A stretch of DNA of 64,000 bases from Nannocystis sp. (GTDB lineage: Bacteria; Myxococcota_A; Polyangia; Nannocystales; Nannocystaceae), in the NCBI RefSeq assembly GCF_016717175.1, contig NZ_JADKFZ010000004.1; one strand, written 5' to 3'. The position numbers and the translations under genes are program-made. A model generated the notes under the pieces. It was not told the origin of the DNA. It saw nothing but the letters and a program-made list of their open reading frames with translations, and did no database searches. This document shows, piece after piece, positions 1-20,558 of this stretch. Positions within the stretch are counted from its first letter, which is position 1. Every line of letters starts with the position of its first letter.

Positions 1-826
1 TGTGGTCGCCGCCGGACACGAGGATCGTCGCGTCGGCGAGGCCGCTGACGGGGGCGGGCGCGCTGTGCTTGCTGGCGCCGTCACCGAGCTGTCCCTCGGG
101 ACCTGTCCCGAAGCACAGGACCTTGCCGGCCCGGGTGCGGACGCAGGTGTGCTGCGCGCCGGGGGCGACCTCGATGATGTCCGTGAGGCCCGGTACCTGG
201 GTCGGCGTGACCCAGGCGGTGCGGACCTCGTTGCCGAGCTGACCGCCGCGGTTGTCGCCCCAGCAGACCACGCCGCCGCTGCGGCGCAGGGCGCAGGTGT
301 GGTCGTCGCCGGCGCGCAGGTCGGTGGCGTCGTTGATACCGCGGACGACCACCGGCATGGCGCTGCGCGAGCCGGGTCGACCCTGGCCGTCGCCGAGCTG
401 GCCGTGGACGTTGCTGCCCCAGCACACGACCTGGCCGTCGCGGGTGCGGGCGCAGCTGTGGCTGGTGCCGAGGGCCAGCTGCACGGCGTCGGCGAGGCCG
501 CGGACGCCGACGGGCTTGGGGCTGTCGCGGAGGTTGCCGTCGCCGAGCTCGCCGCTGCTGCCGCGGCCCCAGCAGTCGACGCTGCCGTTCTCGCTGCGGG
601 CACAGGCATGATCGCCGCCGGCGGCGATCTCGACGGGGGGGCCGAAGGGGCTGACCTGGGTGCCCGTGCCGGGGCCGGGCTTGGTGGCGGTGCCGGTGCT
701 GCCGGTCGGTTTGCTCGGGGTGGTGCCGGTCTTGGTCGGGGTGTGCGTGCCGTAGCCGCGGGGGCCCTCGTCGCAGGCGGCGAGCGCGAGCAGGGGGAGG
801 GCGAGCAGGAGCTTACGGGCGGGCAT
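1..826 (-). CDS. RCC1-repeat lipoprotein, 5' complete, 3' end runs off the window
   Basis: Reverse-complement translation from the ATG at 824-826 gives MPARKLLLALPLLALAAC (lipobox) followed by repeated ...CWGxxxxGQLGDG... RCC1-type blades. Absent from the ORF track because there is no stop inside the window. Confidence 0.75.
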   Translation of the reverse strand, partial: MPARKLLLALPLLALAACDEGPRGYGTHTPTKTGTTPSKPTGSTGTATKPGPGTGTQVSPFGPPVEIAAGGDHACARSENGSVDCWGRGSSGELGDGNLRDSPKPVGVRGLADAVQLALGTSHSCARTRDGQVVCWGSNVHGQLGDGQGRPGSRSAMPVVVRGINDATDLRAGDDHTCALRRSGGVVCWGDNRGGQLGNEVRTAWVTPTQVPGLTDIIEVAPGAQHTCVRTRAGKVLCFGTGPEGQLGDGASKHSAPAPVSGLADATILVSGGDH

Positions 827-18671: not shown

Positions 18672-18729
18672 GAGCCCGGGTGTACGCCGGGCGGCCGCGG
18701 GCTGTCCACGGGGCCGACGAAGCAGGACG

Positions 18730-19142
18730 TCAGGGGCACACGCAGCGGACCTTGTCGCCGCCGTTCGGGACCTTGCCGGTCTGGCCGCAGTCGAGGTCGT
18801 AGCGGGCGCCGGTACAGCGTTGGGCGCCCTTCCCGTCGGGGCTGCAGGCGGAGTACATCTCGACGCAGCCGTCGCCGAGGCCGGGGCGCGGGTGGAGGTC
18901 GCGGTGGCCGGCGAGCGGAGGGGGCGGGGCGGCGGGCGGTGGAGTTGGTGGGGTTTCGGCGAGCGGGGGTGGGGGTGTCGGAGGCGTCGGTGGGGTTTCG
19001 GCGATTGGGGGTGGTGGTGTCGGAGGCGTCGGGGGGTGGGTGCGGTCGGGGGTGTCGGTGGCGTCGGGGCGGCGGGCTTGGTCGGCTCGGTCGGGGCGGT
19101 GCAGGCGAGGAGCAGGGCGCCGAGGAGGAGGAGGCGGTGCAT
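18730..19142 (-). pseudogene. small Pro-rich lipoprotein with 6-Cys C-terminal domain, split by an apparent 1-nt frameshift in a C6 run
   Basis: Signal MHRLLLLGALLLAC in one frame from ATG 19142. The C-terminal GCVEMYSACSPDGKGAQRCTGARYDLDCGQTGKVPNGGDKVRCVCP lies in the +1 frame ending at 18730. The frames join if the run acccaCCCCCCgacg has one extra C. The DNA carries (TPPTPP) repeats. Confidence 0.5.
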
Positions 19143-19190
19143 GGTGGGACGATAACCTGGGTGGGAGCGCGGGCGGTGGGGCACGGGCCG

Positions 19191-19272
19191 GGGTGGGGGG
19201 GGGGGGGGGGGGGGGGGGCGGGGGGGGGGGGCGGGGGGGGGGGGGGGCCCGGGGGGGGGGGGGGGGGGGGGT
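19191..19272. repeat. ~80-nt near-pure poly-G (poly-C on the minus strand) homopolymeric tract
   Basis: gggtgggggg gggggggggg ggggggggcg gggggggggg gcgggggggg gggggggccc ggggggggggggggggggggg read directly. Lies 50-130 nt upstream of the minus-strand lipoprotein start at 19142. Confidence 0.95.
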
Positions 19273-19618
19273 GGGGCCCTGGGGCCCGGGGGCCCGGGGG
19301 CGCCGCCCCGCGCCGCGGGGGGCCCTCCGGCGCGCGACGCCTCCGCTAAAGGCAAGGCGGTCGGCGTCGCCGAGAGCCGGCCCCACCCCGGCCCTGAATG
19401 GGGTGACGTCGCTGCGCGGTATGTAGCAGCGAATGCGACGGGTTGCACTCGATATGTCGCATTGCTGTGAGCCTCGAAGCGCTCACCGTTCAATGCACTC
19501 AAATGGGTCCGGGGCAGTCCTGCGGAGCGTCCGTGTCGGGCGCGCACATTGCTGTCGGGCCCATGTCGCCGCAACAATCGTCGTGGCTGCAGAGGATGCA
19601 ACTCCATTCGAAGCAGGC

Positions 19619-19832
19619 CGTGATGCGTCCAATGTGAATGAGTTGTGGTCGCCGTGTGGCACCTTTCGTTCCTGTCCGAAGAGGCAGGTTGCGAGTCTCA
19701 GGCCGGGGCGGGCCTCGGCGACGCCGTGATGCATGCAATGTGAATGAGTTGTGGTCGCCGTGTGGCACCTTTCGTTCCTGTCCGAAGAGGCAGGTTACGA
19801 GTCTCAGGGCCGGGGCGGGTCCGGCCTCGGCA
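19619..19832. repeat. 107-bp tandem duplication (2 copies) of a lower-GC element
   Basis: gtgatgcgtccaatgtgaatgagttgtggtcgccgtgtggcacctttcgttcctgtccgaagaggcaggttgcgagtctcaggccggggcggg... repeats from 19726 with ~6 mismatches. Copy 2 ends in the hairpin GGCCGGggcgggtCCGGCC. Confidence 0.9.
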
Positions 19833-20013
19833 GGGCCGACCGTACCGTCCTTTAGCGGAGGCTTCGCTTGCCGGAGGGCCGACGGGGGGGTCGACCGAGT
19901 CAAGGGGCGCCGTGGAGAACGAAGTTCTCCAAAGGCGAACCCGCCCTGTCTGAGGCCCTGACCCCCGTCGGACATCCGGCTTCTCGAGGATACGCGCGCG
20001 CCCGCCGGACCCG

Positions 20014-20170
20014 CCCCGGTCCGTGCCACGATACTCGCGGAGTCCTGCTGTGATAGCGAGGATACTCGCGGAGTCCTGCTGTGATAGCCCGGTCCGTGCC
20101 ACGATACTCGCGGAGTCCTGCTGTGATAGGCCGGTCCGTGCCTTGATATTCGCGGACCTGCGATAGCGAG
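20014..20170. repeat. 41-bp tandem repeat (~3.5 copies), lower-GC
   Basis: cccggtccgtgccacgatactcgcggagtcctgctgtgatag repeated, last copy degenerate. Immediately 3' of the cbiX stop on the minus strand. Confidence 0.85.
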
Positions 20171-20180
20171 GGGTCGGCCT

Positions 20181-20558
20181 TCAGGGCAGCTGGGCGCGGC
20201 GCAGGGCGGCGGCGGCGAGGGCGTCGAGCACGGGCTCGTCCATGCCGATCGCGCCGGGGCTCAGGTGGAGGGTCAGCTGCGGGTATGCGGCCTGGACGGC
20301 GGCGATGAGGGCCGGGACGTCGCGCTTGATGTGTTTGCCGCCGGGGCTGAGGAACAGGGGGACGACGGCGATCGTGCGGTGGTCCGTGGCGAGCCTGGCG
20401 ATCGCGGCGGCGAGGGTGGGCCCGTGCTCGAGGGTGGCGACGTGGACCGGCGTGTCCGGGCTGAGCAGGCGGAGGCGAGCCGCGGTGAGCTCGACCGGGG
20501 CGAGCCAGTCGGGGTCGGGGCTGCCGTGGGCGAGCAGGACGATCGCGTCGGCGATCAT
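20181..20558 (-). CDS. cbiX: sirohydrochlorin cobalto/ferro-chelatase CbiX (small form)
   Basis: MIADAIVLLAHGSPDPDW...VVPLFLSPGGKHIKRDVP matches CbiX/SirB motifs. ATG overlaps the serA stop (ATGA). Confidence 0.8.
   Translation of the reverse strand: MIADAIVLLAHGSPDPDWLAPVELTAARLRLLSPDTPVHVATLEHGPTLAAAIARLATDHRTIAVVPLFLSPGGKHIKRDVPALIAAVQAAYPQLTLHLSPGAIGMDEPVLDALAAAALRRAQLP

Follow-up and report, generated by a model that had tools for sequence, protein, structure and literature searches.

An intergenic island beside cbiX in Nannocystis contains two inverted copies of a dispersed, structured repeat module

The DNA between cbiX and a lipoprotein gene in Nannocystis sp. is organised by two inverted copies of one structured module, located at 19803-20030 (plus strand) and at approximately 19158-19434 (minus strand) of the window, as we call the whole stretch of 64,000 nucleotides that was analysed. 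The module is an imperfect palindrome of ~230-300 bp that is specific to Nannocystis; its two copies surround 0.4 kb of non-coding DNA, and each folds on itself when single-stranded. On balance, we read the island as a decayed, non-autonomous, MITE-like pair of palindromic repeats. A sequence-only reading of the same interval had proposed a structured RNA locus or a decayed mobile or repeat element rather than simple spacer DNA. What it observed is real and its interpretation is partly supported, since a dispersed repeat of conserved secondary structure makes up the core of the island and is missing at the orthologous sites of relatives.

Results

The island and its surroundings

The window has a GC content of ~72%, and its nearest relatives by SerA are Nannocystis or Nannocystaceae, several of them from wastewater metagenomes. 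The island lies on the minus strand between the stop codon of cbiX (20181) and the ATG of a frameshifted lipoprotein gene (19142). cbiX (20181..20558, minus strand) forms the right edge, and homology with the island-less relatives stops at its stop codon. The lipoprotein gene (18730..19142, minus strand) adjoins the left module and is part of a segment that is missing from the related locus L009. The spacer had been given as ~900 bp; a gap is present, but its real length is 1038 bp (19142-20181). The local GC content is indeed low, with 62-67% over 19350-19950 compared to ~72% around it, whereas the left fifth of the gap is a poly-G tract with 86% GC (19190-19300). It was also correctly seen that the gap contains no credible ORF: ORFs of up to 176 amino acids are present, they overlap the repeats and none has a Pfam match. 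Small protein genes were considered for the island and rejected on these grounds.

The imperfect hairpin with a 12-bp stem at 19425-19470 was recovered with a folding energy of -26.4 kcal/mol (z = -2.2 on the plus strand). It overlaps with the unique non-coding interior of the island (19435..19616), a potential cargo slot with 62% GC, for which no homolog was found in any related locus compared and whose ORFs are without Pfam match. The sequence-only reading missed a 77-nt inverted repeat, in which 19321-19397 and 19804-19880 are ~83% complementary. The whole 560 bp closed by this repeat fold far better than shuffled sequences on both strands (z = -7.6 on the plus strand and -9.3 on the minus strand).

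The island had no blastn match in plasmid and phage collections, and scanning viral contigs with a pattern for the module gave 0 matches. A covariance-model search against Rfam had been suggested as a check for a structured RNA. Run with Rfam 15 on the island with its surroundings (3.5 kb) and on the module by itself, and with E values of up to 10 admitted, it gave no family match and only chance-level hits (E ≥ 0.5).

A family of module copies

A pattern derived from the inverted repeat was run against species-representative genomes and hit one stretch, in a Nannocystis sp. MAG (L001); a more degenerate pattern run against metagenomes hit five contigs (L002-L006). Using blastn and nhmmer, two inverted copies of the module were located in L001 and two in L003, one copy each in L002, L004 and L005, and one copy that is cut by the contig end in L006. 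Altogether, 10 copies or part-copies are present in seven sequences, two in the window and eight in the six contigs, which stem from the Nannocystis MAG and two metagenomes. The rest of the 64-kb window holds no further copy, and none was found in ~75 kb of related sequence counted without redundancy. The core of the module comprises ~225 nt; in the commoner subfamily homology reaches ~50 nt inward and ~25-40 nt outward of it.

The right module has a complete core (19803..20030, plus strand) according to blastn and nhmmer matches to the copies in L001-L006. The left copy, which runs from its inner to its outer end on the minus strand (19158..19434), was detected with blastn against L005 (positions 157-440) and with nhmmer (E = 1.9e-14). 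Three parts of it are recognisable, the first 77 nt of the core (19321-19397), the inner extension (19398-19434) and the outer end (19158-19195), and its middle is masked by the poly-G tract.

Identity between module copies is 85-97% in the family comparison. The copies L001L and L003R come from different samples and have unrelated flanks and cargo, yet they share 97% identity along the entire module. The left copy of the window matches the copy in L005 with 98% identity in the first ~80 nt and with 93% identity in the inner flank. The two copies of the window share only 76% identity over the first 80 nt and are therefore not a recent pair. In L005, the interior beside the copy that is near-identical to the left module of the window (1-110, minus strand) is the start of a gene (MRWLLPIACGSLVAALVW...), and lipoprotein 1 is not found on the outer side. 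Since both interior and outer side differ, the same module stands beside different DNA in a related genome.

The module folds into a covarying three-element structure

A consensus structure was computed with RNAalifold from seven complete copies. Pairs were counted on that structure, and as controls the partners were slid by 1-3 columns and 500 shuffles were made. The consensus fold has 67 pairs in three elements, a closing stem, a small hairpin and a long hairpin. Altogether, 96.5% of the cells are paired, compared to 38-48% with slid partners, and 20 pairs show changes on both sides, compared to one to four in the slid controls; none of the 500 shuffles reached the observed values.

The closing stem of 20 bp is made by the two ends of the module (19807-19825 with 20004-20022). 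These ends are inverted over 18-20 bp and read GGGCCGGnGCGGTCCGGC and GCCGGACCGCnCCGGCCC. The stem is 98.5% paired across the seven copies, and seven of its pairs have changed on both sides. We also considered that the 5′ strand of the stem pairs with a nearby direct repeat, GCCGACCGCACCG; this was rejected, as the changes in the window subfamily co-vary with the distal partner. The closing stem is followed by a second helix (19826-19829 with 19985-19988), the small hairpin (19830-19867) with an invariant AGC at 19854-19856, and the long hairpin (19870-19980, 111 nt), which has a GAA-loop apex, GGAGAACGAAGTTCTCC, and two conserved G·A mismatches near its base.

The reverse strand folds nearly as well, with -112 compared to -120 kcal/mol and likewise 20 covarying pairs. 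Because both strands fold alike, the strand is not assignable, and the structure may be a palindrome at the DNA level. The arms of a DNA palindrome can be corrected against each other during replication, which can mimic compensatory evolution without any selection for structure.

Tandem arrays at the module edges

The two tandem repeats of the island had been described as unrelated families. They are not independent of each other, since each straddles one boundary of the same module. At the inner edge, the duplication reported with a 107-bp unit was confirmed by TRF and a repeat search, with a unit of 106 bp, 1.9 copies and 95% matches (19617-19819 or 19617..19825, plus strand). In this unit, ~69 nt from the inner side of the right module are joined to the initial 37 nt of the core, and the duplication is shared with the ortholog L004. 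At the outer edge, the array that had been read as 3.5 copies of 41 bp was measured by repeat searches as a 42-bp array at 20015..20171 (plus strand) with four units (42, 31, 42 and 42 bp), which are spaced by 31, 42 and 42 bp. A full 42-bp unit combines the final 15 nt of the module (CCCGGTCCGTGCCAC) with a 27-nt core (GATACTCGCGGAGTCCTGCTGTGATAG), which occurs three times exactly where 0 occurrences are expected by chance.

The outer array differs in size between close relatives: the window has four units and L004 has two, and L026 shows at least two, whose spacer is different. The corresponding edge of the copy L001R borders on a 44-bp array of unrelated sequence (2.9 units), and no tandem array was found at the module edge in four other copies. 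The fold of the 42-bp array is no better than that of shuffled sequences (z = +0.5 and +1.3), and the array sequence was found nowhere else in the 64-kb window. Iterons or a structured RNA in the 42-bp array were considered and rejected on the grounds of this fold. A CRISPR array was rejected because the 27-nt and the 15-nt parts both repeat, leaving no unique spacers, and because the period is only 31-42 bp. We infer that the arrays are slippage products promoted by the adjacent hairpin and not functional sites. Uniqueness of the repeat units together with a lack of covariation had been named as evidence against a special element. Neither part of this statement applies here: the 27-nt and 106-bp units do occur only at this locus and in its orthologs, but the module that they adjoin is multi-copy and shows covariation.

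Each of the 106-bp units contains the sequence GTGGCACCTTTCGTTCC (19648-19672 and 19754-19778, plus strand), which resembles the -24 element of sigma-54 promoters (TGGCAC) but is combined with an imperfect -12 element. The sequence is oriented toward the right module, and the other module subfamily lacks it.

The poly-G tract and the frameshifted lipoprotein gene

At the place of the long hairpin of the left module lies a tract of almost only G and C (19196..19320), which on the minus strand contains 98 C, 25 G, 2 A and 0 T. The only runs of at least 12 G in the 64 kb fall into this tract. Between two exact anchors shared with L005, the window has these 125 nt whereas L005 has 132 nt that form an ordinary hairpin (51 C, 44 G, 22 A and 15 T). 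We know of no biological process that strips A and T from a segment while keeping its length. The tract has nearly the same length as the hairpin that it replaces and the neighbouring gene is frameshifted at a homopolymer; for these reasons we regard 19196-19320 as very probably an artefact of base calling, polishing, consensus building or assembly, which arose at a hairpin that resists sequencing. This part of the island should be treated as unreliable sequence.

The neighbouring lipoprotein gene encodes a signal peptide and lipobox (MHRLLLLGALLLAC) in one frame and a Pro/Thr-rich linker with a Cys-rich C-terminal domain in another. The frame switches near a run of six G at 19031-19036. This break is either a sequencing indel or a sign that the gene is a pseudogene.

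Inverted pairs with unrelated interiors

Three loci contain two copies of the module (the window, L001 and L003), and in all three the TCAGGG end points inward and the interiors are unrelated. Under random orientation, one particular arrangement in all three pairs has a probability of (1/4)^3 or ~1.6%, a value that is based on only three pairs. While the pair in the window encloses non-coding DNA, the L001 pair encloses 4.3 kb with an nSTAND6 NTPase/metallophosphatase gene, and the L003 pair encloses 1.15 kb with the gene for a Cys-rich secreted protein. Genes downstream of modules are cbiX, an RPE65-family gene and a methyltransferase gene; in L006 the gene that adjoins the module codes for a type II DNA methyltransferase.

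The cargo of L001 (1933-5262) encodes a protein of 1109 amino acids with metallophosphatase and nSTAND6 NTPase domains and TPR repeats, which matches PDC-S60, a candidate defence family of PADLOC. The part for the C-terminal TPR repeats shows a 205-bp tandem repeat (3.1 units) as well as apparent frameshifts. A fragment of 72 amino acids with an HxHxDH-like motif (SHCHADH) is located directly inward of the right module of L001 (5347-5565, minus strand); it is probably the remnant of a gene for a protein with a metallo-beta-lactamase fold.

Presence and absence among relatives

The island is present in the window, in L004 (88-93% nucleotide identity) and in L026 (94% over serA-cbiX). Relatives of comparable divergence are without it: it is absent from L009, where serA-cbiX has ~89% nucleotide identity and is followed by a 100-bp spacer and then by different genes, and it is likewise absent from L021-25. 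In L001 a module is located downstream of the RPE65 gene; at the same place the 94.5% identical L018 has an ordinary terminator.

Comparison of the window (18690-20180) with L009 (11603-16995) identifies a replacement hotspot, which lies between cbiX and the second lipoprotein/permease genes. The hotspot holds 1.5 kb in the window (the island and lipoprotein 1), 5.4 kb in L009 (genes for an RCC1-repeat protein, a 110-aa protein, an ECF sigma factor and a Ser/Thr kinase) and a convergent CBS-domain gene in L021-25. L021, L022 and L023, which are different assemblies of an 84% relative, end at the same base ~150 bp past the CBS-domain gene, and L024 ends ~20 bp earlier. The coinciding contig ends suggest a repeat just beyond that these assemblies did not resolve; module sequence is not visible in L021-L024 themselves.

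Discussion

The reading of the island as a decayed MITE-like repeat pair is consistent with its being a short element without ORFs (core ~225 nt, no Pfam) that has terminal inverted repeats, is present in multiple dispersed copies and has empty orthologous sites (L009, L018 and L021-25). Covariation along the whole long hairpin counts against it, as a classical DDE-type MITE does not need such covariation. A transposase or an autonomous copy was found in none of the loci compared, and the candidate ends in the window and in L001 showed no direct repeat; since the outer ends are fuzzy, a target-site duplication is not definable.

Copies would have spread or been exchanged between loci either by a trans-acting factor, with a transposase or recombinase as candidate, or by homologous recombination of one copy with another. 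Two copies whose like ends point inward would behave as long terminal inverted repeats around interchangeable cargo. Replication slippage at the edges of the module may account for both tandem repeats, the inner 106-bp duplication as well as the outer 42-bp array with its variable number of units, and the hairpin of the left copy would have defeated sequencing and left the poly-G tract. Pairs of MITEs that bracket cargo are known, as in the MITE-flanked integrons of Acinetobacter.

REP/REPIN and ERIC sequences are intergenic hairpin repeats of 20-130 nt, often located between convergent genes and present in hundreds of copies; for REPINs compensatory changes in the hairpin are documented. The module is likewise intergenic and hairpin-forming with compensatory changes, but it is much longer (~230 nt), branched and seemingly rare, and no RAYT-type gene was seen. 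With the MITEs of bacteria, for which a review of prokaryotic elements gives an outline (PMC10969869), it shares the small size, the lack of ORFs, terminal inverted repeats of 18-20 bp, dispersed copies, presence/absence polymorphism and pairs that flank unrelated genes. It differs from them in that neither a target-site duplication nor a parent IS was seen, in covariation throughout and not at the ends alone, and in a copy density that appears low. For Porphyromonas gingivalis, a MITE that contains a minisatellite is described (PMC4596501); it is similarly a non-autonomous inverted-repeat element with a tandem array. The arrays of the module are located on the boundaries and not inside, and their units differ between copies (42 bp here and an unrelated 44 bp in L001).

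Several other explanations were weighed against the MITE-like reading. The modules could be genes for functional small RNAs or 3′-UTR/terminator elements, with the 27-nt repeats as putative protein-binding sites that control the lipoprotein gene or cbiX. The strongly conserved, covarying structure agrees with this, as do a UUCU after the long hairpin, a neighbouring gene whose 3′ end abuts the outer end of the module in five of six cases, and G-U pairs that are somewhat commoner on the inner-to-outer strand. However, the island is missing at the orthologous sites of relatives that keep both flanking genes, the neighbours of the different copies are unrelated, and the 85-97% identity between copies points to recent copying and not to convergent function. 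The promoter scan showed no promoter-like site, including none of the sigma-70 type, and the only terminator-like matches are weak and lie inside the 106-bp unit; the 42-bp array is structureless, freely variable in copy number and found nowhere else in the window. Together with the lack of an Rfam family and the similar folds of both strands, this speaks against the discrete ncRNA or regulatory locus of the sequence-only reading, and we consider a regulatory role of this kind quite unlikely. An assembly error that created the entire island, by a mis-join or a collapsed repeat, is hardly credible. It is true that the poly-G tract looks artefactual, that the adjacent gene is frameshifted at a homopolymer and that contigs of other assemblies break inside the repeats, but the right module, the 106-bp duplication and the cbiX junction recur in independent assemblies: L004, a JGI metagenome, has 93% identity over part of the island, L026, a Logan run, has 94% over serA-cbiX and into the repeats, and L005 reproduces the left module with its flanks.

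The module might also be a copy of a retron msr-msd ncRNA gene without a reverse transcriptase (RT), similar to the msDNA-like repeats of Nannocystis exedens, which would have spread by DNA duplication or through reverse transcription by the RT of a distant retron and whose copies might still serve as templates in trans. We regard this as the chief alternative, possible but rather unlikely. Read from the inner to the outer end, the consensus fold has the layout of retron ncRNAs as outlined in PMC7736814 and PMC6868368: the terminal inverted repeats form a closing stem of the a2/a1 type, and a small hairpin (19830-19867) is followed by a 111-nt stem-loop (19870-19980), an order that is reversed on the opposite strand. 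From the long hairpin to the 3′ strand of the stem the module measures ~134 nt, close to the 144-160 nt given for the Nannocystis msDNAs Ne144 and Ne160 in PMC6868368, and its invariant AGC occurs as TAGC, GAGC or CAGC, all of which are among the variants listed there for retron priming sites. The host genus is the same as well. N. exedens is the only organism with reported RT-less duplicated msr/msd-like repeats, and for its Retron-Nex1 (Ne160) duplicated msr/msd repeats with no RT within a kilobase are on record (Lampson and Rice 1997, Mol Microbiol 23:813, as cited in PMC6868368). According to the account in PMC6868368, the priming G belongs to an NAGC that is located at the inner end of the a2 strand or follows it immediately. 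In the module, however, the NAGC (19853-19856) comes ~30 nt after the a2 strand in the 3′ direction, where the loop and the stem of the small hairpin meet, and the bases directly after the closing stem are CUCGGC. In the window and in L001-L013 there is no ORF of at least 150 amino acids with a YxDD box plus an NAxxH or VTG motif. Rfam includes a retron msr family, but the module has no match in Rfam. Both strands fold about equally (-120 and -112 kcal/mol), and inverted pairs around cargo are not a feature described for retrons in the literature consulted. The module thus resembles the RT-less msr-msd repeats of Nannocystis in genus, in dispersed or duplicated copies without an adjacent RT, in the layout of the fold and in the AGC with T, G or C before it, a comparison made by description only, and it differs from them and from retrons in the misplaced AGC, in the lack of an RT-linked master copy among the copies found and in the inverted pairs around cargo. 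Because of the misplaced AGC and the lack of an RT nearby, we do not file it as a retron ncRNA. The family has possibly been described already in 1997. A combined scheme is very unlikely: in it, retron-type ncRNA genes would have turned into structured terminal repeats of a cassette-like mobile unit that captures arbitrary cargo, among it defence genes such as that for the STAND NTPase of L001, and is moved by a trans factor, for instance a retron RT or a DEDE/SWIM protein. Type XIII retrons of myxobacteria are accompanied by a transposase-like DEDE/SWIM protein (PMC7736814).

As a decayed MITE-like repeat pair, the element probably has no dedicated function at this locus; at most, it may serve as a structural terminator or as an insulator that separates cbiX from the lipoprotein gene. 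In annotation, the island should consequently not be labelled as a regulatory RNA of either gene. For a structured Nannocystis repeat family that brackets variable DNA, sequence, fold and boundaries are now defined and can be searched for in complete genomes. If retron-type modules did form the ends of a cargo-capturing cassette, retrons and gene mobility would be linked in a way that has not been described before. Should the family be identical with the msDNA-like repeats found in 1997 by hybridisation and cloning, the loci described here would provide the genomic anatomy for a nearly forgotten observation, and the spread of retron RNAs or DNAs within a genome would become a testable question.
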